From assembly GCA_965224245.1 (NCBI GenBank), contig OZ245046.1, forward strand, positions 4,320,001-4,384,000: a stretch of DNA of 64,000 nt, read 5' to 3'. This DNA is from Candidatus Eiseniibacteriota bacterium (GTDB taxonomy: Bacteria > Eisenbacteria > RBG-16-71-46 > CAZAMP01). The notes under the pieces were generated by a model that made no database searches, was not told the DNA's origin, and worked only from the letters and a program-made list of their open reading frames with translations. This document shows positions 43,490 through 63,044 of the stretch, piece after piece. Within the stretch, counting starts at the first letter, position 1; the number at the start of each line of letters is the position of its first letter. A program made the translations under genes and the position numbers.

Positions 43490-44365
43490 TCAGCCCTGGG
43501 CTCCCCGGTCGCCGCTGCCGCGTCGCTTGCGCCAGTCCCCCCGAGGCTCGCCCTGCCAGGCGAGCATCGCCTGGAGGCTGGTCGCGAAGCCGTCGATGCC
43601 CGGGAACAAGCTCAGGCGGTTCACGTTCAGGCGGTTCAGCCACGCGAGCAGGTACCACTGATTGTCGAGGGTGATGGGGATCTCGATCTTGATCACACGC
43701 GTCCGCAGCACGGTGGGCGTGCCGAGCGACCGGAGGTTGCTCATGAACGACTTGCCCGGATTCATGGGGACCAGGAACACGCCTTGCTGCACGGCCAGCC
43801 GCTCGTTGACGTAGTACGGCACCAGCGGAACCACGAGGGTCGGCTCCTCCTCCAGGAGCACCGTGACCGCCGCGGGACTCTTGAGCTTCGGATCGATCCG
43901 GAGGGCCTCCCGCACGGCCGGCACCTTGCTGCGCCGGAGCCGATCGAACATCCACTGCTGGTCGATGGCCCAGACCGCGCACGTGTCACCGGGGTTGGCC
44001 TGCTCGATCGCGAAGAAGAGCGCGATGTGAAACGAGTACGTCCAGTCGAGCAGTCGCGTGGGCGCGCCGTGATGCTGCATGAGCGCGTACCACTCCATGA
44101 AGTCGTCCGCACGCGGGACGCGTCCCGTGAACCGATGGAGGTGTCTGACGAAGTGGCGGAAGACGCGCCACTCGAGATACGCCTGATGTGAGAGCGGCCT
44201 GCCGAAGCGGTCGGTCGCGATCCGCTCCAGGCTCGGCTTGAGATCCCAGCTCGAACTCCCCTGGCCGCGAAACACCCACTGGATGCTCGGATCGGAGAAG
44301 CGCGCCTCGATCAGATCCTGAACCGACTGCCACGAGTCGCAGCTCTCGACGTGATACCAGGTCAT
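43490..44365 (-). CDS. FRG domain protein
   Basis: 'WVFRGQ', 'MQHHGAPTRLLDWT', 'ALFFA', 'NERLAVQQGVF', 'SLFPGIDG'; AGGAGG RBS. Confidence 0.9.
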   Translation of the reverse strand: MTWYHVESCDSWQSVQDLIEARFSDPSIQWVFRGQGSSSWDLKPSLERIATDRFGRPLSHQAYLEWRVFRHFVRHLHRFTGRVPRADDFMEWYALMQHHGAPTRLLDWTYSFHIALFFAIEQANPGDTCAVWAIDQQWMFDRLRRSKVPAVREALRIDPKLKSPAAVTVLLEEEPTLVVPLVPYYVNERLAVQQGVFLVPMNPGKSFMSNLRSLGTPTVLRTRVIKIEIPITLDNQWYLLAWLNRLNVNRLSLFPGIDGFATSLQAMLAWQGEPRGDWRKRRGSGDRGAQG

Positions 44366-44532
44366 CCGCACACCTCCTGTGCCGGTCGAACCCGGACCAT
44401 ACACCGGGCAGGGCGACCGTTCGACGGTCGTGAGACGCCCCCGGCCGGGGGGGGGCACCCGGCCGGGGCCGATGCCGACCGGACCGCATGCCGTGCCCCA
44501 CAGATCGCTTCGTTCAGCGGGGACGTCCGTCC

Positions 44533-44562
44533 GTGTGATTCCGGTACCCCCCACGCGCCCAA
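44533..44562 (+). promoter_or_regulatory. Candidate ECF-sigma promoter (copy 1)
   Basis: GTGTGATTCCGG-N10-GCGCCCAA; flanks and spacing identical to the copy at 48567-48596. Confidence 0.7.
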
Positions 44563-44634
44563 TCCGAGCGACCACCCGGGCGTGCCGGCGGAGGCCGCCC
44601 GCACTGACGGCATCCACGTTACAGGAGGCACGAC

Positions 44635-47100
44635 ATGCTCCGCTGGAACGCCGGCGCGCGCCGCGGGCGCGCGTTCACGGCGGCGCTCGCGTGCGCGCTC
44701 GTCTGGCTCGGGATCGCAGCCGCCGGCTCGTCCGCCGCCACGTACTTCGTCGACGCCGCACGGCCCGACGACGCGGGTAGCGGAACGAGCTGGGACGACG
44801 CCAAGAGGACGATCGACGCCGCCATCGCCGCCTCGGCCGCCGGAGACGCCATCCTCGTCAAGTACGGCGCCTACGCGATCGACGACGACATCGTGCTCGT
44901 CTCGCATCGTCGCATCACGTCCGACGACGGCACGCACCTCGACTGGAGCTCGGCCGATCCCGATTCGAGTCTCTGCGTCGTCGACGCCGGCCAGGGCTCT
45001 CGTGTGCTCACCATCCACGGCGCCGCGATGACCGGACCGACTCACGTTCGAGGCCTCGAGCTGACCGGCGGCGACGGCACGTACAGCTCCGCCGACCCGT
45101 CCGCCGCCTATGGAGGCGGCGTCTACGTCGATGGGGGCGCCGACGTCACGCTCGAGCGCTGCTGGATCTCGGGCAACGTCGGCGGTACCAGCTACAACGG
45201 ATTCGGCGGTGGGGTCGCGTGTCTGGGGACAGGGACCGACGTCTCGATCGAGGACTGCCGGATCTCGGGAAACACCGCGGCCACACCCCATCACGGGTAC
45301 GGCGGCGGCATCTACTGCGACGGCGTCACCGCCACGATCGTCGGGAACGTGATCGAGGGCAACCTCGGATCCGTCCACCGGACCGGGGTCGGCGGCGGCA
45401 TCTACGCCGCGAACAGCGACGTCGTCGTCCAGTCGAACACGATCACGGACAACGTCGCGGCCGGACCCAGCTCGGGCGCGGGCGGCAACGGCGGCGGCGT
45501 CTATCTCTTCTCGGGCACCGCCGACGTCGGGCTGAACACGATCACCGGCAACAGCGCCGCCGAGGCGACGTCGAGAAGCGGTGCCGGCGGCGGGATCTAC
45601 TGCAGCACCGCCGAGACGTACATCTGGGAGAACGTGGTCGGCGAGAACGTCGCCTCTCGGGGGGGACGGGGCAACGGTGGCGGGATCTACTGCCGGGGAT
45701 CCGATTCGGTCGTACGCGACAACGAGGTGTACGACAACGTGGCCAGCACGTCCACCACAGGAGGCTACTACGCGTACGGCGCCGGGGGCGGCATCGTCGC
45801 CGGCGAGGGCAGCGGCATTCACGTGCTCCGCAACCGTGTGTACGGGAACGTCGCCTCTCGCTACGGAACGGGCAACGGAGGCGGGATCTGGATCAACAAC
45901 ATCGCGCAGATCGTGGAGCGGAATCTCATCTACGACAACGTCGCGTCGGAGGGGGCGCCCGGCGCCGGTGGCGGCGTCTTCATCAACGGCACGACGCGCG
46001 CCGAGGTCGTCAACAACACCCTGTACCACAACGCGAGCCAGACCGGCGGCGACGGGGGAACCGGCAGCGGGATCTATCACACCTCGGGCGGCACCCCGAC
46101 GATCCGCAACAACGCCATCGCCGCTCACGACGTGCCCGGCAGCGACATGGTGGGGATCTACGAGACCTCCGCCCTGACCGTCGAGTACAACTGCTATCAC
46201 GACAATCCGGGCGGGCACTACAACGAGCACGTGGTCTCGCTGAACGAGGGCATCGGCGAGCCCCGCTTCACCGACGCCGCGGTCCGCGACTTCGAGCTGC
46301 TGTACGACTCACCCCTGATCGAGGCCGGGCATCCCGACACGGAGGTGCCCGAGAACGGCGGCTGGCGCGTCGACGTGGGCGCGATCGAGTACACGGGGAT
46401 CCGCCACGCCCGCGCCGTCCCGGGCCCCGGTGAGTACCTGTTCGGCGGACAGGTCCGCGCAAAGGTGACCGTCACCACGTTGGGCACGCTGTCCGAGATC
46501 GACATGACCGTACATCCCGGCGAACGGCATCCCGATGCGGTGAGCGTCGTCGATCGCTGGTTCGACATCCAGGCGGACGAAGGAGGTGGAACCACGTTCG
46601 AGCTCACGCTCAGCTATCTCGACGAGGAGCTGAACGGGCACCGGGAGAGCGACCTCACCCTCTGGCGGCGGGACGGATCGTCGTGGGAGGGACCCAAGGT
46701 CCCCACGGACGCCGATGCCGACGACGACTGGCTGACCGTCAGCGGGGAGACCGCGTTCAGCGACTGGGTGATCAGCGGCTTCGACGTGATGCTCGACGTC
46801 CCTGGCGAGACCGTGCTCGGGCCCGCCGTCGCCCTCGGAGCCCCGGCGCCGAACCCGTTCCGCGTCGTGAGCAGGCTGCGGTTCGACCTGGCCGACCGGG
46901 GCCGGACCACGCTGGCGGTCTATCGAACCGACGGGCGGCGGGTTCGCACGCTGATCGACGCGGTGCTCCCGGTCGGCGTGCACGAGATCACCTGGGATGG
47001 TCGCGACGACGCGGGGCACGCGGTCGCGTCCGGTACCTATTTCTGCCGGCTGTCGACGGCACGGGGTCGAGTCGACCGTCGACTGACCCTCGTGCGATGA
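44635..47100 (+). CDS. Secreted right-handed parallel beta-helix (GGGIY repeat) protein with C-terminal FlgD-Ig/T9SS-type domain
   Basis: Signal peptide; 'GSGTSWDDAKRTI'; many 'N.A..GGGIY' repeats; 'SPLIEAG...DVGAIEY'; 'PNPF...WDGRDDAG...SGTYF'. Confidence 0.88.
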   Translation: MLRWNAGARRGRAFTAALACALVWLGIAAAGSSAATYFVDAARPDDAGSGTSWDDAKRTIDAAIAASAAGDAILVKYGAYAIDDDIVLVSHRRITSDDGTHLDWSSADPDSSLCVVDAGQGSRVLTIHGAAMTGPTHVRGLELTGGDGTYSSADPSAAYGGGVYVDGGADVTLERCWISGNVGGTSYNGFGGGVACLGTGTDVSIEDCRISGNTAATPHHGYGGGIYCDGVTATIVGNVIEGNLGSVHRTGVGGGIYAANSDVVVQSNTITDNVAAGPSSGAGGNGGGVYLFSGTADVGLNTITGNSAAEATSRSGAGGGIYCSTAETYIWENVVGENVASRGGRGNGGGIYCRGSDSVVRDNEVYDNVASTSTTGGYYAYGAGGGIVAGEGSGIHVLRNRVYGNVASRYGTGNGGGIWINNIAQIVERNLIYDNVASEGAPGAGGGVFINGTTRAEVVNNTLYHNASQTGGDGGTGSGIYHTSGGTPTIRNNAIAAHDVPGSDMVGIYETSALTVEYNCYHDNPGGHYNEHVVSLNEGIGEPRFTDAAVRDFELLYDSPLIEAGHPDTEVPENGGWRVDVGAIEYTGIRHARAVPGPGEYLFGGQVRAKVTVTTLGTLSEIDMTVHPGERHPDAVSVVDRWFDIQADEGGGTTFELTLSYLDEELNGHRESDLTLWRRDGSSWEGPKVPTDADADDDWLTVSGETAFSDWVISGFDVMLDVPGETVLGPAVALGAPAPNPFRVVSRLRFDLADRGRTTLAVYRTDGRRVRTLIDAVLPVGVHEITWDGRDDAGHAVASGTYFCRLSTARGRVDRRLTLVR

Positions 47101-47239
47101 GCTGACGAGGGCCGAGGGTGCCCCCGCGGAGAGCACGCGAGCGCACGATCTCCCTGGTCGCGCGCTCGCTTTCGTCTAGCGCCGTCGGGGCACGCCGTGC
47201 GTGACGAACGTGTCGGGCCGGGATGCGGCGGTGAGACGC

Positions 47240-47950
47240 TCACGGCATCCGGAACGTGCCGACCCGTGAACGCGCGATCTCGTCTCGGTTTCGGTAGGCG
47301 ACCACACACCACGCTACCGCGGCGCCGGATGGCGGCGGATCGGGGACGCGCGTGGGCTGGAAGACCAGGAGCGTGTCGGGGCCACCGTCCACGATCGCGT
47401 GAACCGTGCCGTCGTCGTCGAGAAGGTGCAGCTCGTAGCGGTTCGCTCCGTCGACCGGACGCCAGGTCAGACGCACCCGTCCGCCCGCCATCCTCTCGGG
47501 CTCCTCGGCGATCGAGACCACGTCCGTGCCGGCCCGGTCACCGCGGAGGCGGAGCTCGGGCTCCCGGTCGTCACGAGCGAGCAACGTCATGGCCGACACC
47601 ACGACGACGAACGCGGCGCCGGCACCGAACGCGGGCCTCCAGCGCGGGCCGAGGAACGCGTCGAAGAGGCGGTCCAGTCGGCTCGGGCGGGTCGACCGGG
47701 CGGCGGCCGCCGACCGCCGGGTCGCGCTCGCTCCGGTGAGGATCTCCCGTTCGAGCACGTCCGAGAGGCGCGCCGCGGCGTCGGTCGGGTCCGCACCCGC
47801 GGGGACATCGGCGGGATCGAGAAACGACCGATACGACGCCAGCCGCGCCCGGCAACGCGGGCAGTCATGCAGGTGGTCGAGCGCGCGGTCACCCGGAGCG
47901 AGCCCGGCGATCGTCTCCAGCTCGTCGATTCGGTAGCAGGCGTCGCTCAT
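47240..47950 (-). CDS. Zinc-binding anti-sigma factor (zf-HC2) with TM and extracytoplasmic beta domain
   Basis: 'HLHDCPRC' (HxxxCxxC); TM 'AAFVVVVSAMTLLA'; ATGA overlap with sigma gene. Confidence 0.8.
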   Translation of the reverse strand: MSDACYRIDELETIAGLAPGDRALDHLHDCPRCRARLASYRSFLDPADVPAGADPTDAAARLSDVLEREILTGASATRRSAAAARSTRPSRLDRLFDAFLGPRWRPAFGAGAAFVVVVSAMTLLARDDREPELRLRGDRAGTDVVSIAEEPERMAGGRVRLTWRPVDGANRYELHLLDDDGTVHAIVDGGPDTLLVFQPTRVPDPPPSGAAVAWCVVAYRNRDEIARSRVGTFRMP

Positions 47951-48561
47951 GGTGATGATCCCCAGCGGTGCGCGTCGTCGTCTCGTGCTCTCGCTGCGAG
48001 TGCGCTGCGAAGCTTTCGCCGCGCGCTCTGCAGCACCCCACGGGCCCCCGACGCGGACCCGATCTTCAGGATCACGGTGATGTCGTCCACGGCGACCCGC
48101 TCGAAGCAGCGGAGCCAGATCGCCTCCTGCTCGACGGGCTCGAGCGTCCGCCGGATCAGCGCGAGCGACGCCTCCTCGTCGAGACGCTCTTCGAGCTCAC
48201 GATCGGGACCGATGCCGTCGTCCATCACGGCATCGGGATCGGCGTGCTCGTCGGTCATGAGCGCCGGTCGACGGAGCTGACTCAAGCAACGATTCCGCGC
48301 GATCGCGAAGAGCCACGACGAGAAGCGCGCCCGCCCCTCGAACGTGCCGAGATCCCGGTATGCCGCCAAGAGCGTCTCCTGGGCCAGATCCAGCGCCCGC
48401 TCGTGGTCGCGGACGTGGCGAACGCACCACAGATACACGCGCCCCTGGTACCTGGCGAACAGGTCGGCGACGTCGCGTCGCACGCCGTCGGCCTCCGGCT
48501 CGGTCTGGAACCGGAGCACGATCTCCTCGTCCGTTCGGTCGGGCGCATTCAATCGGTTCAT
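47947..48561 (-). CDS. ECF sigma factor
   Basis: 'LFARYQGRVY', 'ALDLAQETLLAAY', 'FEGRARFSSWLFAIARNRC', region 4 'ARGVLQSARRKLR'. Confidence 0.9.
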   Translation of the reverse strand: MNRLNAPDRTDEEIVLRFQTEPEADGVRRDVADLFARYQGRVYLWCVRHVRDHERALDLAQETLLAAYRDLGTFEGRARFSSWLFAIARNRCLSQLRRPALMTDEHADPDAVMDDGIGPDRELEERLDEEASLALIRRTLEPVEQEAIWLRCFERVAVDDITVILKIGSASGARGVLQSARRKLRSALAARARDDDAHRWGSSP

Positions 48562-48566
48562 CGAGC

Positions 48567-48596
48567 TTGGGCGCACGACCACCTCCGGAATCACAC
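48567..48596 (-). promoter_or_regulatory. Candidate autoregulatory ECF promoter (copy 2), probably giving a leaderless transcript
   Basis: Minus strand GTGTGATTCCGG-AGGTGGTCGT-GCGCCCAA ends 5 nt before ATG 48561; no obvious RBS. Confidence 0.7.
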
Positions 48597-51461
48597 CGAT
48601 CGGGGCGCCGGCCGGGTCGAACGGTCGATCGATCCGGCGCGACGCCGCCACCACACCGCGGTCACCCCGAGACCGATCCCCAGCCCGATCAGGGCGCGGC
48701 CGGGCCAGGAGTGGCGACGCTCGAGGGCGATGGTGGCTCGACCGTCCCCCATGACCGTGAAGCCGGCCCAGTAAAAGGGATGTGTCGTCTCGGGATCCTC
48801 TCTCATCCGACGCTGCGCCGTCCCGAGCGCGCCCGCCACCGAGCGTCCGCGCTCGAGGGCTCGATAGAAGACGTCCATGAAGCGCGCGGTCTGTGCGTCG
48901 TCGACGGGCCAGAGCGTCGAGACCACGCACCGCGTGCCGGCCACGAGGAATGCCGTACCGAGCCCCAGCATGCCCTCTCCGGAGACGATTCGCCCACCCG
49001 CGCTCTCGCATCCGGAGAGCACCGCCAGGCGCGCATCGAGATCCAGCGACACGATCGCCTCGGCCCGCAGCATCGAGTCCGCCTCGGCACTGCCGGCACC
49101 GCCGGGTCCGCTGACGTCGGCCGAGTCGGCCGATCCCGAGCCCCCGGCGCCGAGGGCGATTCCCGATCGCCAGGGCCGCTCGTCGTCCACGGTGATGTGT
49201 CCCGCGAGGTGGACGACGTCGTAGCCGACCAGGTCGGCGCCGCGGAGCGATCCCGCCTCGTCGTCCCTCCACAGATGCACGTGACGATAGCGTCCGGCGA
49301 GCTGCCGGACTTCGCCCCGCGCGCCGGCCAGATCCCCTCCGACCGACGGGCCGGCGGCCGCATAGGCGAGCGTGGACGGCGCCCCGGCTGCCGTCGAAGG
49401 CGCAACGTCGCGAAGAAGCGCGAGCACGGCACAAGACGGCACGCGCAGAACCGTCGCGTCGACGTCGCCGGCCAGCAGCGGGCGCAGCGGAATCCGATGG
49501 AGCGCGCCGTCGGGAACGTAGACGATACCGCTCGCGGCGGCGATGAGATCGGACACGCCCGCGAGCAGCGCGCTGGCCAGCGTGGCCGTGGTACGGGCCA
49601 GGAGCTCGAGGTCGGCGTCGCCCGATGCGCTCGACGGGGGCGCGGCGAGGAGACCCCGGCAGATCCCGACGTTGCGGGCGAGCCTCGTCTCGGTCATTCC
49701 CACGCGAACCACCCGACAGGAGTCCGTCGTCACCGCGAACACCAGTGTCTGATCGGATGCCGCGTGAATGTCGAGTAGTAGCTCTCCGGGCACGAGCACC
49801 CGGGTCTGGATCGCCGAGAGCGTCAACGCGTCCGTCGGCGCCCGTGCTCCCGCATCCTCGCCCAGCATGCGCTCGATCAGCGCGCGCGATCGAAAGCGCT
49901 GCAAGAACGCGAACGCGCGCTCTCGCCGCGCGGCCACCGGCAGCTGGGCGGGATGCTCGAGCAGCAGATCGGCGAGCGCGCCGTGAATCGCCGACCCGAG
50001 CTCCGCGCGCTGCTCCCGCCACATCGGATCGTCGGGCCGACTCCGCATGGCCTCCCAGGAGTCCGCGGCCTGTCGCAGATACACGTATGCGCTGTCGGGG
50101 TACCCGAGCCCTCGATGGGCCGCCGCCGCGATGCGGCGAATGTGGAGGTCGACCTTCACCGGCAGCGGCTCGTCGTCGGCCTCGGCCGCGATCGCCCGCG
50201 CCAACGGAAGCACCTCGGCGTAGCGGCCGGCGTGGAGCAGGAGCTGTGCGAGCTCGCCCTCGATCACGACCCGCTTCTCGCGCCCGAGCCGGGGGACGAT
50301 CTGGGGGAGGTGTTCCTCCATCAGGGTGACGGCGGCGGCCAGCGAGTCGGCGTCGTCGAGCGTGCGCGCGAGCCCCTTCAGGGCATCGGCCTCGAGGGCG
50401 GGCAGGTCGGTCTCCTGAAGCAGGTGAAGGGCGGCCCTGTAGTGCCCGACCGCCTCACCGGATCGGAGCCGGTCCCGCGCGATCTCCCCGAGCGCGATGC
50501 GCGCGGAGGCCTCGTGATCGCGAAACCCGAACTCCCGGGCGATCGCGAGCTGCTCGTTCAACAGGCGCTCGGCGTCCTCGTACCGGCCCAGCTCTCGAAA
50601 CGCCAGCGCCGCGTTGGAGGCCGGCGCGATGGCGGCGCGCAGCCGGTTCTGCGCGCGCAGAACCGCGTACGCCTCGTCCCAGTGGACGGCGGCGCGATCG
50701 GGGCGGCCGGCGTTCGCCTCGAGGAGCCCCAGGTTGGTCAGGCAGTTCCCCTCGAGCGACGCCTGATCGTGCTCGCGCGCGTAGCGAAGCGCGTCCGTCC
50801 AGCTCCGTCGCGCCGCGTCGACGTCTCCCGCGCGGTGCTGGCAGATCCCGAGAAACAGCTTCGCCCCGTTCTCGTCGAGGGCGAGGTCGAGCCGCTGGAA
50901 GAGGGCGATCGCGCGCTCCAGCCGACGGGCCGCGCTCTCGAGCTGCCCGGCGCCGATCTCGCGACGACCGAGGTACAGATCCCCGCGCCCCACGAACTCG
51001 TCGAGGCCGGCGCGCTCGGCCAGCTCGATCACCCGCTCGTACATCGCGATCGCGCGTGGCGGCCGCCCCTGGGCATCGGCGGCCTGGGCCTGGCGGAAGA
51101 GGCTCCGGCACCACAGGAGCGTGTCGGCCACCTGCGCCGAGAGCGAGGCCGCCTCGGCCAGTGCCGACTCCGCCTCGGCCGGGCGGTTCATGAACCGGAG
51201 CACGCGTCCGATCCGGAACGCGGCGCGTGCCTCGTCACCGGCGGCTCCGGCCCGGTGACGCTCGTCTCGCAGGGCGCCGAGGACGACCAGCGCCGAGTCG
51301 AGACGGCCTTCGGCCCGCAGCGAGTCGGCGTGGGAGAACGCGGCATCCACGTCGGCCGCGCCCGCCGGTCCGGTCGTCTCGGCGGTGGCGAAGGGCGCAC
51401 GCCCGTGCGCCCAGAGGATCGCCGTGAGGCACAGCAGTGCCGTCGTCAGAGAGGCCCGCAC
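48591..51461 (-). CDS. TPR-CHAT (caspase-like, clan CD) protease with N-terminal signal-like segment and C-terminal TM anchor
   Basis: TPRs; 'VPDGALHRIP', catalytic His region 'VVHLAGH', Cys 'LSGCES', 'STLWPVDD', 'HPFYWAGF'; C-terminal 'ALIGLGIGLGVTAVWWRRR'; start codon uncertain. Confidence 0.88.
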   Translation of the reverse strand: MRASLTTALLCLTAILWAHGRAPFATAETTGPAGAADVDAAFSHADSLRAEGRLDSALVVLGALRDERHRAGAAGDEARAAFRIGRVLRFMNRPAEAESALAEAASLSAQVADTLLWCRSLFRQAQAADAQGRPPRAIAMYERVIELAERAGLDEFVGRGDLYLGRREIGAGQLESAARRLERAIALFQRLDLALDENGAKLFLGICQHRAGDVDAARRSWTDALRYAREHDQASLEGNCLTNLGLLEANAGRPDRAAVHWDEAYAVLRAQNRLRAAIAPASNAALAFRELGRYEDAERLLNEQLAIAREFGFRDHEASARIALGEIARDRLRSGEAVGHYRAALHLLQETDLPALEADALKGLARTLDDADSLAAAVTLMEEHLPQIVPRLGREKRVVIEGELAQLLLHAGRYAEVLPLARAIAAEADDEPLPVKVDLHIRRIAAAAHRGLGYPDSAYVYLRQAADSWEAMRSRPDDPMWREQRAELGSAIHGALADLLLEHPAQLPVAARRERAFAFLQRFRSRALIERMLGEDAGARAPTDALTLSAIQTRVLVPGELLLDIHAASDQTLVFAVTTDSCRVVRVGMTETRLARNVGICRGLLAAPPSSASGDADLELLARTTATLASALLAGVSDLIAAASGIVYVPDGALHRIPLRPLLAGDVDATVLRVPSCAVLALLRDVAPSTAAGAPSTLAYAAAGPSVGGDLAGARGEVRQLAGRYRHVHLWRDDEAGSLRGADLVGYDVVHLAGHITVDDERPWRSGIALGAGGSGSADSADVSGPGGAGSAEADSMLRAEAIVSLDLDARLAVLSGCESAGGRIVSGEGMLGLGTAFLVAGTRCVVSTLWPVDDAQTARFMDVFYRALERGRSVAGALGTAQRRMREDPETTHPFYWAGFTVMGDGRATIALERRHSWPGRALIGLGIGLGVTAVWWRRRAGSIDRSTRPAPRSV

Positions 51462-51728
51462 GCTGCTCTCCCCCGACTCCACGCGCTCACGCGCGTGCTC
51501 CAAGGCTCGATCGCCACCGGGCGAGCCATTCGTGTGCTCGCCGAACGAGCGCGTGCGGCGAATCGCGAGACCGCGAATCGCTGGTCGCATTGTACTCCCG
51601 CCGGGCGGTGTCCGGAATCAGCCGTCGAACGAAAAGGCAGCGTGATCGGGACCAGTGGGAGAGTCCGAGCGGAGGGATGGAGGCGACCCCCTCACGGGAG
51701 CGGGTCGCCTCTCGACGTGATCAGCGCA

Positions 51729-54077
51729 CTAGCGCAGGATGAACAGCTTGCTGTGGAAACTGCCGAAGCGGGTGTCGAACCGGATGAAGTATGCCCCGGA
51801 CGCGAGCAGGCTCCCGTCGTCGGAGCGCGCGTCGAACGCATACTCGTGCCGGCCCGCCTCGAACGCGCCCTCGGCGATCGTGCGCACGAGCTGACCCTTG
51901 ACGCTGAACAGCCGCAGCGATCCCTCGGTCGGGCGATCCAGCTCGTAGTGGATCTTGGTGCTCGACTTGTACGGGTTCGGCGACGCACCCAGCGCCACGA
52001 ACGGGAACGGGTTGGTCGGCGGCTCCAGCGGCTCGACGGCCACGACGATCCCGCCCTCGACGAGGGTCCGCGTGTGCAGCACGAGCGCCGACCCGTCGAC
52101 CTCGACGGACGCGGTGTGGTCGAGCTCCTGGGCGCCGGTGAACGTGCCCGCGATGCCGTTCAGCGACATCGTGCCCGACACGGCGAACACGTAGTCGGAA
52201 ACGCCGTCGGTCAGCGTCATGTCGCCCGCGATCTCCACCGTGCCCGGGCCGGTGGACGTCAGACCGATGAGCCCGCTCCAGGAGTCGGTGAACGCGATGC
52301 CGCCGAGGGCGGCGTCGGACTCCGCGGTGAAGTCGAAGTCGATGTCCGAGGTGCCGGTGCGGACGATCGCGAACGTCCCCGTCACCGTGCCCTCGGTGGC
52401 GGTCAGCGTGACGGCGCCGCTGATGTCCTCGCCCCCGATCTGGAAGACGCCCGGATCCTCGGCCGGCGTGGCCAGGAATCCGAGCGCGAGGCCACCCACC
52501 GCCAGCTGCGCGTTGGAGTCGACCGCCGGCGGCGGATCCATGCGGATCTCCGCCTCGTTGGGGATGAACCACGCCGTGCCCGACGCGGCGAATGGGGCCA
52601 CGGACGCAATGTCGCCCGTCACCGAGAGCGTGTGCACGTCGTCGAAGCGCGAGAAGATGACGTCGGGGTTGCCCTCGCGCGCGTCGGACCACGCCGCGAA
52701 CACCGACCGCTCGTCGCTGTCCATGTCGTTGTAGTCGCCGAAGTTCGGAATGGCGTCGGCGGGCACGCCGCACCAGGCCACCGACATGTCGGACATGCGC
52801 CGGTTCGGGCCGAACGTGACGCCGCCGTCGACCGACTGGGTCACGTAGAAGTCGCAGAGGCTCGTTCCGCCCGCGTCGTTGCGGCGATCGTACCAGCCCA
52901 CGGTGACGCGGCCGTCGGGGCCTACCGACAACGTCGGGAAGAACTGCTCGGTGTCGTCGGAGGGTGTGTTGTCGTTGAGCTGCTTGAACCCCTGGAAGCT
53001 CGCACCGTGGTTGTCGGAGTACTTGTAGTAGATGTTGAACTCGCCGCCCGCGCCGTTCACGTAAGACGCGTGCAGGCGCCCGCGGTTTTGACCGTCGCTG
53101 CGATCCACCTCGACCGACGGCCAGCGCAGGTTGCGGTCGCGGTTGAAGCACTGCGGATTCTCGCCCGAGAAGAACCCCATCGTCGCGATCTGGTTGATCC
53201 CGGTCGACCAGCTCGAGCCGCCGTTGGAGGAGTACCGCACGAACGCGGTGCCGCTGGCCGCCGGATCACCCTCGGCCCACGAGACGTACACCCCGCCGTC
53301 GATGCCGACCACGGGATACGGTCCACTCGAGCCGAACCCGTCGACCACGAGCCGCGGGGACGCCCACGCGAGCCCGTCGGTGTCCGACCACGTGAGCTCG
53401 GTGTTTCCGGTGTTGATGTTGTTGTACGCCATGTAGATCCGGTCGATGGTGGGATCGTAGTCGAGATACTCCTTGTCGAGGAAGGCGGCCCCGTACCGGA
53501 TCGGTGGATTCCAGGTGAGCACGTCCGAGATGAACTCGCCGCGGTTGACGGCGAGGCCACTGGGATCTCCGAGGCTGTTCAGGCCGATCGACGCGTAGAC
53601 CCACGTGCCGGCGTTGGTCTTCACGATCGTCGGGTCGCCGAGGACCCCGATGGTGGCCGTCTCGGGCATGCTGCCGCCATCGGTCCAGGTCTCGCCGCGG
53701 TCGCGGGAGTAGCCGACGCCGCTGTTGCTGCCCACCCCGGCGAACCCCCGCGAATCGTTCCAGCCGATGACGACGTCGTCACCGTCGACCCAGATGCCGA
53801 CCTCGGACTGAACCGAGGCGCCGGGCTCGCCGGTCCGGTCGTTGACCAGCTTGTTGTCCGGAGGTACCGCGCGCCCGGGAGGCACGGGCTGGGTCTGAGG
53901 CGGATCGTAGTCGCCAACCGGCGGCTCGATCGGCTCGGGAAACGCGGAGCGGAACGCCGTCCCGGTCGTGGAGTCGGCGCCCGGGGCGTCCGACGTGGCT
54001 CGCTCGCGTGCTATGAATCCTCCGGCGACGACCAGGATGCTCACCAGAGCGATGGCCGCGGTGCGATGCGCTGTCAT
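51729..54077 (-). CDS. Secreted BNR/Asp-box (sialidase-like propeller) protein with C-terminal FlgD-Ig/T9SS-type domain
   Basis: Asp boxes 'SRDRGETW', 'SSNGGSSW', 'SDNHGASF', 'SVDGGVTF'; 'DKEY', 'FGDY'; 'SPNPY...SGAYFIR'. Confidence 0.85.
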   Translation of the reverse strand: MTAHRTAAIALVSILVVAGGFIARERATSDAPGADSTTGTAFRSAFPEPIEPPVGDYDPPQTQPVPPGRAVPPDNKLVNDRTGEPGASVQSEVGIWVDGDDVVIGWNDSRGFAGVGSNSGVGYSRDRGETWTDGGSMPETATIGVLGDPTIVKTNAGTWVYASIGLNSLGDPSGLAVNRGEFISDVLTWNPPIRYGAAFLDKEYLDYDPTIDRIYMAYNNINTGNTELTWSDTDGLAWASPRLVVDGFGSSGPYPVVGIDGGVYVSWAEGDPAASGTAFVRYSSNGGSSWSTGINQIATMGFFSGENPQCFNRDRNLRWPSVEVDRSDGQNRGRLHASYVNGAGGEFNIYYKYSDNHGASFQGFKQLNDNTPSDDTEQFFPTLSVGPDGRVTVGWYDRRNDAGGTSLCDFYVTQSVDGGVTFGPNRRMSDMSVAWCGVPADAIPNFGDYNDMDSDERSVFAAWSDAREGNPDVIFSRFDDVHTLSVTGDIASVAPFAASGTAWFIPNEAEIRMDPPPAVDSNAQLAVGGLALGFLATPAEDPGVFQIGGEDISGAVTLTATEGTVTGTFAIVRTGTSDIDFDFTAESDAALGGIAFTDSWSGLIGLTSTGPGTVEIAGDMTLTDGVSDYVFAVSGTMSLNGIAGTFTGAQELDHTASVEVDGSALVLHTRTLVEGGIVVAVEPLEPPTNPFPFVALGASPNPYKSSTKIHYELDRPTEGSLRLFSVKGQLVRTIAEGAFEAGRHEYAFDARSDDGSLLASGAYFIRFDTRFGSFHSKLFILR

Positions 54078-54150
54078 GCGACACCTCCGTGTGTGGGTGG
54101 AGGGAGATGGCCGGAAAGTGAAATTGTAGCGCGTCCCGGCGCTCCGGTGG

Positions 54151-54711
54151 TCACCGGCCGAGAAACTTTCGGTGCAGGATGTGCGGCTCCTCGTTGCTGA
54201 ACGGCGGCGGCAGCGGCAGGGCCAGCCCGCGGGCGACCTCGACGAACCCGAAGGCCCAGTGCAGGTCGATCGACGGCCGGTTTCCCTCGCCGGTGAAGTA
54301 GTAGACGACGTCCGTGCGCTCACGGAGCCATTCGAGGCGGCGTGCGGTCAGCGCGCGGCCGATCCCCATGCGCCGGTGGCTGCGATCGACCTCCACGCCC
54401 GTCAGATACCAGCCGTCGGGCACGACGGAGGACCCGCCCGCGTCCTTCCAGGTTTTGTAGGCGCACTTGCCGTACCCCGCGATCCGACCGCCGACCACCC
54501 CCACGCACGTGAACGCGCGTTCATCGCGGGCGGCGCGCTCCAGCGCGGCCCGGACCAGGGGGGCGAGCTCCGCGGGTGGCCGGTCCTCCCGCTCGACGTC
54601 CACGTGCGCGATCGCGAGCGCGTCGTCGGGAAGGGCGTCACGAACGACGATCGGCGCCGGGCGTCCGTGCCGCTCCGGCTCGTACGGCGATCGGGTGTTG
54701 CGCCTGGGCAT
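54151..54711 (-). CDS. GNAT family N-acetyltransferase
   Basis: 'VDRSHRRMGIGRAL' acetyl-CoA motif; 'NRPSIDLH..FGF'. Confidence 0.85.
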   Translation of the reverse strand: MPRRNTRSPYEPERHGRPAPIVVRDALPDDALAIAHVDVEREDRPPAELAPLVRAALERAARDERAFTCVGVVGGRIAGYGKCAYKTWKDAGGSSVVPDGWYLTGVEVDRSHRRMGIGRALTARRLEWLRERTDVVYYFTGEGNRPSIDLHWAFGFVEVARGLALPLPPPFSNEEPHILHRKFLGR

Positions 54712-62448: not shown

Positions 62449-63044
62449 GCCACCTCGACGCGCTCCAGCTCCCCGCGGATCTCGCGGATTCGCTGGAGCG
62501 CCCGGTGCTTGGCGTTGTAGATCGACTTGACGTCCACGCCGAGCTCCTCGGCCACCTCACCGGGCTTCCGCTCGGCGAGCACGACCATCTCGAAGGCTCG
62601 AAACGCATCGGCGCTCAGCTCGGTCCGGACGCGAGCGACGCACGTCTCGGCCACGAAGATCTCCCACGAGCGCTCCCAGAGCTCTTCTGGGTCGGCATCG
62701 GCGACGCCGTCGGGATCGCGGCCCTCGTTCGGCAGGATGCGGTGGCGACGCGCCTCGCGCTTCTGATGATCGAGGATCTTCATCCGCGCGATCCCGAACA
62801 GCCAGTGGCTGAGTCGGCCGCGGTCCCGATCGTAGCGGCCGTCACGGAGCAGGCGGGCGAACGTGGTCAACGTCTCCTGCGCCACGTCCTCGGCATCGAA
62901 CGGGCCCAGTCGCATCGCCCTGGCGAAGGCGAGGATCGGCTCGCGAAAGCGGTCCACCAGCCGCTCCCACGCATCCTCGTCCTCGAACAAGCGCAGCTTC
63001 TCGAGAATGGTGGACGTGGTGACCCATGTCGTGGGTCCGCTCAT
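62445..63044 (-). CDS. ECF sigma factor (Ser/Thr kinase-linked)
   Basis: 'TTSTIL', 'AWERLVDRF', 'DAEDVAQE', 'GRLSHWLFGIAR', 'EVAEELG...IYNAKHR'; overlaps kinase start. Confidence 0.9.

Follow-up and report, generated by a model that had tools for sequence, protein, structure and literature searches.

We analysed a 64,000-nucleotide stretch of a Candidatus Eiseniibacteriota genome (contig OZ245046.1, positions 4,320,001 to 4,384,000), hereafter called the window, and describe a module of three genes on its minus strand encoding a TPR-CHAT protease, a sigma factor of the extracytoplasmic function (ECF) type and a zinc anti-sigma factor. The module is real and conserved in other genomes, and the three proteins very probably act together. 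As to how they act, we see an even chance that they form a two-gene version of the Myxococcus xanthus DdvA/DdvS system, in which a membrane-tethered protease would cut the anti-sigma factor in trans after the Arg of a V-L-R-G motif, as a site-1 protease.

Protease, sigma factor and anti-sigma factor of the trio

Because the window is GC-rich (~69% G+C), long spurious open reading frames (ORFs) are abundant, and genes were picked by codon-usage-based gene calling combined with Pfam matches. The three co-oriented genes named in a preliminary description of this DNA are all present. Direct reading of the sequence showed that they follow one another on the minus strand in the order TPR-CHAT, ECF sigma, zinc anti-sigma, with ends that overlap or nearly touch. 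The sigma stop and the anti-sigma start share an ATGA (codons checked), and 27 nt separate the CHAT stop from the sigma start, or the two overlap in a GTGA if sigma uses GTG 48594. This signalling module is probably transcribed as a single unit. The genes and the features of the protease are as follows (protease residues numbered from GTG 51461).

48591..51461, minus strand: TPR-CHAT protease gene, 956 aa from GTG 51461 (Pfam CHAT and TPR, AlphaFold2, Foldseek)
51381..51461, minus strand: signal-peptide-like N-terminus, residues 1-27, ending in FATA before E; hydrophobic segment ASLTTALLCLTAILW, AlphaFold2 helix 3-18
49842..51359, minus strand: TPR superhelix, residues 35-540, with regular helix pairs in the AlphaFold2 model and Pfam TPR matches
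48744..49589, minus strand: CHAT domain (clan CD, caspase-like), residues ~625-906, Pfam PF12770
49197..49199, minus strand: codon of the predicted catalytic His755 (HLAGH), checked; invariant in 17/17 orthologues
49008..49010, minus strand: codon of the predicted catalytic Cys818 (LSGCES), checked; invariant in 17/17 orthologues
48636..48701, minus strand: predicted C-terminal membrane anchor, residues 921-942, then an RRR tail; AlphaFold2 helix, hydrophobic window ALIGLGIGLGVTAVW
47947..48561, minus strand: ECF sigma gene, 204 aa, start and stop codons checked; alternative start GTG 48594 over the CHAT stop
47240..47950, minus strand: single-pass zinc anti-sigma gene, 236 aa (alignments A1 and A3, AlphaFold2)

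The full protease ORF spans 48591..51590 and encodes 999 aa from ATG 51590. Within it, Pfam CHAT (PF12770) matched residues 668-949 with 173.2 bits (cut-off 24; E 1.1e-50), and TPR_12 (E 4.9e-17) was found together with related TPR families. Translation from GTG 51461 begins with MRASLTTALLCLTAILWAHGRAPFATA followed by E, while ATG 51590 would add 43 basic residues in front of the same hydrophobic segment, which would then serve as a signal anchor. The C-terminus reads ALIGLGIGLGVTAVWW, then RRR. With either start codon, most of the CHAT protein would by prediction lie outside the cytoplasm. A TACAAT hexamer (51588-51596, minus strand) overlaps ATG 51590, and a similar GCTACAAT occurs upstream of the BNR gene described below; if TACAAT is a -10 element, GTG 51461 would be the true protease start.

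The AlphaFold2 model of the protease, built on an alignment of 17 orthologues, reached a mean predicted local distance difference test score (pLDDT) of 84.2 and a pTM of 0.73. It consists of a helix at residues 3-18, a disordered stretch at 18-33, the TPR array at 35-540, the caspase-like domain, a linker of 15 residues and a helix at 921-942. Hydropathy and this model bear out what had been claimed for the protein, namely a signal-like N-terminus, a C-terminal transmembrane segment followed by RRR and, between these, a CHAT domain predicted to be extracytoplasmic. The His and Cys motifs, described as intact, were likewise found in the sequence as VHLAGH (H751/H755) and LSGCES (C818). The H755/C818 dyad is kept in 17/17 orthologues at 28-37% identity, so that catalysis appears to be under selection, the peptidase activity itself being predicted. 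E717 and D855 are invariant too and might line an acidic S1 pocket suited to Arg. Of the 17 orthologues, 15 end in a hydrophobic anchor followed by a basic tail (missing in loci L048 and L055); among the 16 CHAT genes of the genome, the one in the window alone has such an anchor.

Structure comparison of the protease model with the PDB by Foldseek gave human separase as the top match (9hn0_B, 7.2e-16, 12% identity). The DdvA structures ranked second and sixth (8rw5, 1.0e-15, TMq 0.46, TMt 0.50; 8rot_A, 7.4e-15), and craspase Csx29 was also recovered (7xsq_B, 3e-12).

The protease linker at residues 906-920 (48702-48746, minus strand) carries a semi-conserved L-x-x-R/K, which in the window reads I-A-L-E-R-R; the Leu is found in 15/17 and the Arg or Lys in 14/17 sequences (alignment A2, counted by eye). 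From its sequence this motif could be a site of self-shedding. We also considered the anchor as a sortase-type sorting signal and rejected this, as no CTERM-type NCBIfam model matched at E ≤ 0.01 and the only motif before the helix was L-x-x-R.

The identity of the ECF sigma factor was confirmed by Pfam Sigma70_r2 (E 3.8e-16) and by NCBIfam TIGR02937, which matched residues 31-188 with 60.2 bits against a cut-off of 42.9. The protein has the make-up of group 4, with sigma2 and sigma4 as its sole regions, and its best PDB matches are ECF sigma factors. The anti-sigma gene also agrees with its earlier characterization as an overlapping HxxxCxxC anti-sigma factor with a transmembrane segment and an extracytoplasmic domain. 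Besides the ATGA overlap, direct reading gave the zinc motif H26-x3-C30-x2-C33 plus C5, and each of these four residues is at least 90% conserved (A1, n=21; A3, n=140). The AlphaFold2 model of the protein (pLDDT 82.1 overall) has N-terminal helices at 8-15, 23-29 and 31-44 with pLDDT >90, a membrane helix at residues 102-125 and 110 further residues. These include a segment at 128-140 with pLDDT <50 and a beta-sandwich ectodomain at 143-234 with pLDDT >90, which matches fibronectin type III (FN3) domains at E ~1e-4 and TMt ~0.6. Going by motif and helices, the CHCC-zinc domain may be cytoplasmic and hold the sigma factor, a proposal that we rate at about one in two, zinc and sigma binding both being predicted. 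An anti-sigma factor of this type occurs once in the genome.

Conservation of the trio and other CHAT genes of the genome

Homologues of the anti-sigma factor (E ≤ 0.001) were found in 15 of 60 same-class relatives, at 33 non-self places. Twenty of these, the best-scoring ones with two partial matches left out, were taken with ~7 kb on each side and scanned with hidden Markov models (HMMs) built from the sequences of the genome itself. The sigma gene adjoins the anti-sigma gene in 20/20 loci, and a CHAT gene is present in 18/20; the other two loci (L042, L043) stop at contig ends. Within these 18 loci the order is CHAT, sigma, anti-sigma in 14 cases and sigma, anti-sigma, CHAT in three, and one is divergent.

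A reverse survey started from the CHAT alignment, taking one genome per species and keeping 80 loci. Twelve of the 15 closest full-length CHAT loci contain a sigma gene together with this type of anti-sigma gene, one has sigma only, one neither, and one lies on a 2-kb contig; four of the 15 are contigs already counted in the anti-sigma survey. They are labelled Candidatus Eisenbacteria, Krumholzibacteriia and Latescibacteria or belong to unclassified metagenome-assembled genomes. The order anchored CHAT, sigma, anti-sigma is found again in farther loci, labelled Aminicenantes and others (L080, L082, L089, L098). Over all 80 loci, a sigma match was found in 33 and none within ~6 kb in 47. Lower-GC relatives, and the CHAT11 and CHAT13 loci of the genome itself, were judged by HMM matches on six-frame ORFs. 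The expectation that the trio is conserved in other genomes holds from both directions, and the anchored CHAT subtype is near-obligately accompanied by this type of anti-sigma factor.

Since the same trio recurs in relatives, its association is more than chance. In favour of a fortuitous neighbourhood of functionally unrelated genes one may say that the genome is rich in both kinds, with 16 CHAT and 47 Sigma70_r2 matches. Such a coincidence is nevertheless hardly credible: 18/20 loci of relatives keep the trio with conserved order and overlapping ends, and 12/16 CHAT genes of the genome (two of them on weak sigma matches) cluster with a sigma gene, whereas the mean spacing of sigma matches is about 148 kb.

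Three architectures of CHAT and sigma genes occur in the genome: sigma, Ser/Thr kinase with DUF4384, CHAT (three loci); sigma, anti-sigma, CHAT; and the trio of the window. In all 11 clusters with an identified partner, the CHAT protein and the non-sigma-binding domain of its partner are predicted to lie in the same compartment, a count without statistical weight because the paralogues are kin. CHAT5, 7, 11 and 12, which have no N-terminal hydrophobic segment (upstream in-frame sequence checked), pair with an anti-sigma factor that has no membrane helix, while CHAT1, 2, 4, 6, 9, 10 and 13, with signal-like or lipobox-like N-termini, pair with a membrane-spanning anti-sigma factor or kinase. 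A protease whose target is the sensor side of a sigma regulator would be expected to give this pattern.

At L001, L002 and L004 (G000:C1, at ~5.478, 0.946 and 0.188 Mb) the order is ECF sigma, Ser/Thr kinase, exported TPR-CHAT. The kinase has one membrane helix with DUF4384 on the outer side, which makes these loci a kinase counterpart of the anti-sigma module. Subtilase genes of family S8 lie near L001, L004 and L010 (the sigma, anti-sigma, CHAT11 locus) and recall the ECF54 context discussed below. An rve-family integrase gene (insertion sequence element) adjoins CHAT2 (L002:7995-8852, plus strand). L005, L007, L010 and L011 combine a signal-less CHAT with an anti-sigma-like protein that has no membrane helix, recognised by Pfam zf-HC2 in 2/4, and from their sequences look like a wholly cytoplasmic form of this pairing.

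Two deviating arrangements were seen among the relatives. At L048 (G036:C109) the anti-sigma factor is without C5, H26, C30 and C33 and the CHAT protein without its anchor, while the linker Arg is retained, as is the His/Cys dyad; because the zinc ligands are lost too, this locus looks like a decaying copy. L080, L082, L089, L098, L112 and L125, labelled Aminicenantes or 'Eubacteriales', have two CHAT genes, one anchored and one not. In the first four these flank sigma and anti-sigma; L112 has a sigma match only and L125 an anti-sigma match only.

Candidate cut site, proposed mechanism and known systems

The preliminary description had guessed a juxtamembrane 'ELRLRG' as the cut site. The guess fell on the only invariant residue of the linker, R136, which lies within the segment of pLDDT <50, and cleavage there is proposed as follows.

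47540..47551, minus strand: juxtamembrane R134-L135-R136-G137 of the anti-sigma factor, candidate site-1 cut after R136 (alignments, AlphaFold2)

In alignment A1 (21 sequences) R136 and W163 are the sole invariant residues. A word-indexed protein search with A1 returned five proteins, all unnamed or 'hypothetical', and is unusable for judging family size. An exhaustive profile search over 1.84 billion cluster representatives gave 15,651 matches at E ≤ 0.001, of which 3,413 reached E ≤ 1e-10 and 787 reached E ≤ 1e-30; some of the 787, a minority, are large FN3-repeat proteins and not anti-sigma factors. Among the best 150 representatives, 140 were single-stretch full-length matches of 216-252 aa, none of them a fused long form; the other 10, of 932-6,828 aa, matched through FN3-like repeats alone. 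In A3, made of these 140 representatives (22-42% identity to the protein in the window), R136 and W163 were again the sole invariant residues, with a slight bias for the Arg, as the sequences were retrieved by a profile already holding it. The consensus around the candidate bond is V-L-R-G:

P3: Val, 74/140
P2: Leu, 110/140
P1: Arg, 140/140
P1': Gly, 96/140

The Arg stands a median of 12 residues (range 8-19) past the membrane helix. An invariant Arg in a disordered juxtamembrane linker resembles a processing site. The geometry of tethering fits the cut site, because the CHAT domain would itself lie ~15 residues from the membrane.

Based on these data, the system may work in the following way. 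The N-terminal signal would direct export of the protease, and its C-terminal helix with a basic cytoplasmic tail would hold it at the outer face of the inner membrane. The anti-sigma factor would hold sigma through its cytoplasmic CHCC-zinc domain and would expose, beyond the membrane helix, a disordered linker of ~15 residues and the FN3 ectodomain. A periplasmic signal, received via the TPR array and/or FN3, would activate the His755/Cys818 dyad; the protease would then cut the anti-sigma factor in trans in the juxtamembrane linker, after R136 of V-L-R-G (site-1), and an RseP-type site-2 protease would clear the stub and release sigma. A site-2 protease is available: the genome contains four matches to Peptidase_M50, the site-2 protease family (best E 1.7e-60).

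To examine the contact, as had been suggested from the outset, we predicted the complex of protease residues 34-915 with anti-sigma residues 124-236, both supplied as alignments. The score of 0.40 (runs 0.42, 0.40 and 0.36) stood above the controls, the best of three reaching 0.00, but amounts to 'weak support' only. The runs share at least 50% of contacts, with a partner pLDDT of at least 72. In the benchmark, the mark was reached by 116/157 solved complexes and 2/215 mismatched pairs, and at ≤0.60 by 18/157 solved complexes and both passing mismatches, counts that are approximate here because custom alignments were used.

A score of this size suits binding as well as cleavage, and the same three genes could form one module in which the TPR-CHAT protein is non-proteolytic. 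It would then be a sensor or co-anti-sigma factor that binds FN3 or the linker through its TPR array, while another site-1 protease, or zinc and redox chemistry at the CHCC site, frees sigma. TPR arrays are protein-binding scaffolds, and the zinc ligands are conserved at 90% or more. The dyad of DdvA is in a resting state, and its mutants had no phenotype in the absence of the signal, H862A and C907A being like the wild type in unstimulated cells, according to the sections of the DdvA paper drawn on here (PMC11506125). However, a dyad that is invariant in all orthologues at such low identity speaks for selection on catalysis, and an invariant Arg in a disordered linker suits a processing site better than it does a docking surface. 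We regard a purely binding role as unlikely.

It is also improbable, in our view to about the same degree, that sigma and anti-sigma sense alone and that the CHAT protein is a co-expressed output, an envelope protease which acts on other substrates (e.g. proteins with FlgD_ig-type tails) or sheds itself. ECF operons are commonly autoregulated and their genes co-induced, the protease has the semi-conserved L-x-x-R in its own juxtamembrane linker, the trio has secreted FlgD_ig proteins beside it both here and in several relatives, and in other phyla CHAT proteins with a membrane tail often occur where no sigma gene is near. An output role is less easily reconciled with the matching compartments in 11/11 CHAT/partner pairs of the genome, with the near-obligate company of the anchored CHAT and this anti-sigma type, or with the density of FlgD_ig genes near the trio, which is not clearly raised (0.086 vs 0.065 per kb).

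Cleavage of the anti-sigma factor by the tethered protease, as proposed here, has to be weighed against several points. The complex prediction is weak. Pfam zf-HC2 did not match the anti-sigma factor at E ≤ 0.01, and the NCBIfam model 'antisigma' gave 16.7 bits against a cut-off of 100. Anchored CHAT genes without a nearby sigma gene (47/80 loci) are spread over many phyla; the anchored-CHAT architecture in general is not tied to sigma signalling. The topology calls derive from hydropathy and AlphaFold2 rather than from a dedicated predictor. Searches of PDB sequences with the protease (phmmer, profile) returned TPR proteins only and not DdvA; what points to kinship with DdvA is fold and domain order. 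Apart from the retrieval bias mentioned above, the invariant Arg might be used by a different protease, or for binding and not cleavage. Separases cut after Arg and craspases after Met or Leu (PMC11506125, in part); because the two differ at P1, Arg specificity is plausible but not implied by CHAT family membership. Finally, cleavage by the TPR-CHAT domain is inferred for DdvA too.

The closest precedent is DdvA/DdvS. As described in the parts of PMC11506125 considered here, DdvA is a single-pass CHCC-zinc anti-sigma factor with a periplasmic TPR-CHAT of ~900 residues, which is proposed, not demonstrated, to cleave its own linker in trans ahead of RseP, and RseP degrades DdvA after removal of the TPR-CHAT. 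In the same parts, DdvA is without the three-helix active-site motif, and fused DdvA-like proteins are reported only in Myxococcota and one Comamonas. The system in the window shares with it an ECF sigma factor and a single-pass CHCC-zinc anti-sigma factor, a large TPR-CHAT of separase/craspase type with a His-Cys dyad (here predicted to be periplasmic), and a flexible linker next to the membrane in which the cut is proposed, with an RseP-type second step. In DdvA, however, zinc domain, membrane helix and TPR-CHAT form one polypeptide, whereas two polypeptides are encoded here: the anti-sigma factor ends in a small FN3 ectodomain, and the protease carries a signal peptide and a C-terminal anchor for itself. 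Further differences are that no sequence-level match to DdvA was found, that neither CBASS nor CRISPR occurs among six neighbours scanned, and that the nearest relatives of the genomes holding this family are labelled Candidatus Eisenbacteria, Krumholzibacteriia and Latescibacteria. Because two polypeptides are encoded and sequence homology to DdvA was not found, we class the trio as working like DdvA and not as a member of its family; given the DdvA/DdvS precedent, the idea is a variant and not a first.

In the type III-E craspase, as far as the part of PMC10028731 used here goes, the TPR-CHAT protease Csx29 cuts Csx30, which frees a sigma-factor pathway (CASP-sigma). The protease in the window has a TPR-CHAT of the same fold class and is linked to a sigma factor. 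It differs in being predicted to be periplasmic and membrane-tethered, while craspase is cytoplasmic, activated by RNA-bound Cas7-11 and cuts after Met or Leu, and in having a classical zinc anti-sigma factor as partner and Arg as proposed P1.

For the actinobacterial group ECF54, supplementary material of the ECF reclassification gives a TPR-CHAT in conserved context, with 0.71 CHAT copies per ECF and a suggested role in regulation or response; the main text, as far as consulted, does not mention CHAT (PMC7826278). The conserved neighbourhood of an ECF sigma gene with a TPR-CHAT gene is common to both. ECF54, from a different phylum, has no putative anti-sigma factor and is accompanied by subtilases and carboxypeptidase-regulatory-like domains, whereas a zinc anti-sigma factor is present here. 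Anchored protease, FN3 anti-sigma factor and cut-site motif are not described in the part on ECF54, and other ECF groups may be treated in the rest of the supplement. In full-text literature searches, no stand-alone periplasmic TPR-CHAT paired with a separate anti-sigma factor was described.

The classical RseA/DegS/RseP cascade resembles the proposed one in its single-pass anti-sigma factor, its periplasmic site-1 cut (proposed here) and its M50 site-2 protease (homologues present). To our knowledge, site-1 cuts are otherwise made by serine or metallo-proteases, or by self-cleaving domains; in the present case, the site-1 protease would be a clan CD cysteine protease from the same operon. Separase (clan CD, C50), the top structural match, likewise has its caspase-like domain after an array of helical repeats and, in the partial account used here, cuts after Arg in an unstructured motif, as the proposed P1 Arg lies in a disordered linker. 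It differs in being eukaryotic and cytoplasmic or nuclear and in its motif (S/D/E)xExxR, compared with V-L-R-G here.

Whether a TPR-CHAT is the site-1 protease of an anti-sigma factor is a question left by the DdvA structure; DdvA cannot be tested unless the phage signal is at hand, and its enzyme and substrate are in one chain (PMC11506125, in the sections cited). Here, enzyme and substrate are on separate genes, with the R136-G137 bond as single invariant candidate scissile bond in a disordered linker. The family is not a curiosity, considering the 787 representatives at E ≤ 1e-30 (a minority FN3-repeat proteins) and the 12 sigma-linked CHAT genes in one genome. If the proposal is true, a clan CD cysteine protease joins regulated intramembrane proteolysis, which would partly explain the large unexplained expansion of CHAT in uncultivated phyla. 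With more doubt than confidence, we suggest that caspase-like CHAT proteases could make up a class of dedicated site-1 proteases in ECF signalling, widespread but unrecognised. Their target in trans would be the sensor-side domain of the compartment-matched partner that holds sigma, be it an FN3 anti-sigma factor, a soluble zinc anti-sigma factor or a DUF4384 kinase; the variant in the window would be Arg-specific at V-L-R-G, and DdvA a fused offshoot.

Neighbouring genes and possible targets

The trio is flanked by genes for secreted proteins with FlgD_ig tails, as is the case in several relatives, and the neighbours of the trio vary between genomes.

44635..47100, plus strand: beta-helix-like secreted repeat protein with FlgD_ig tail (Pfam 3e-08), convergent with the trio, a neighbour and at most a candidate member of the system
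51729..54077: BNR/FlgD_ig gene upstream of the trio (gene calling, Pfam)
51681..51711, minus strand: GC-rich hairpin, possible terminator without U-tract (minimum free energy -27.7 kcal/mol, z -3.24)

The hairpin stands between the BNR/FlgD_ig gene and the trio. A consensus promoter and terminator scan of 44200-54400 gave 0 promoters and 0 terminators and is uninformative in a GC-rich genome.

The adjacent beta-helix gene had been taken as a target induced by the sigma factor. This claim is not supported: the gene lies on the plus strand, convergent with and not downstream of the trio, and promoter motifs, whether shared or conserved, did not exceed those in shuffled sequences. This holds for bipartite motifs common to the sequence ahead of the CHAT operon and that ahead of the beta-helix and BNR genes. 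Across 27 trio operons, the best gapped upstream motif was seen in 10/27, against 7-10 in shuffles, and ungapped k-mers did no better. We also rejected FlgD_ig-tailed genes in general as targets, their density being 0.086 per kb in trio loci compared with 0.065 per kb genome-wide. With 452 ORFs carrying an FlgD_ig-type C-terminal tail in the genome (451 first-look candidates), or about one per 15 kb, such ORFs are so common that adjacency of one says little. Their number suggests a very large secretome using this tail.

On the far side of the beta-helix gene, 2.9 kb away from the trio, is an FRG-domain gene (43490-44365, minus strand; Pfam FRG 2.4e-23, PADLOC candidate defence family PDC-S15 1e-43). 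It bears on the idea that the trio is a switch sensing phages or other invaders and controlling a defence locus, as DdvA/DdvS does with its CBASS-CRISPR island in the sections of PMC11506125 referred to here. This idea concerns the role of the module and is compatible with cleavage of the anti-sigma factor by the protease. The partial match of the CHAT domain to PADLOC BovA (8.2e-09) would also fit it. On the other hand, a PADLOC scan of six neighbours gave, besides FRG/PDC-S15, no match to CBASS, CRISPR or any further family (a dedicated search for cas genes was not made), the neighbours differ across genomes, and no promoter motif ties the trio to any of them. A defence role is thus a rather doubtful assignment, to which we give little credence.

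An extra Sigma70_r2 match (E 1.7e-9) is located near the end of the window at ~62745-62960 (minus strand), within an open frame of 882 aa.

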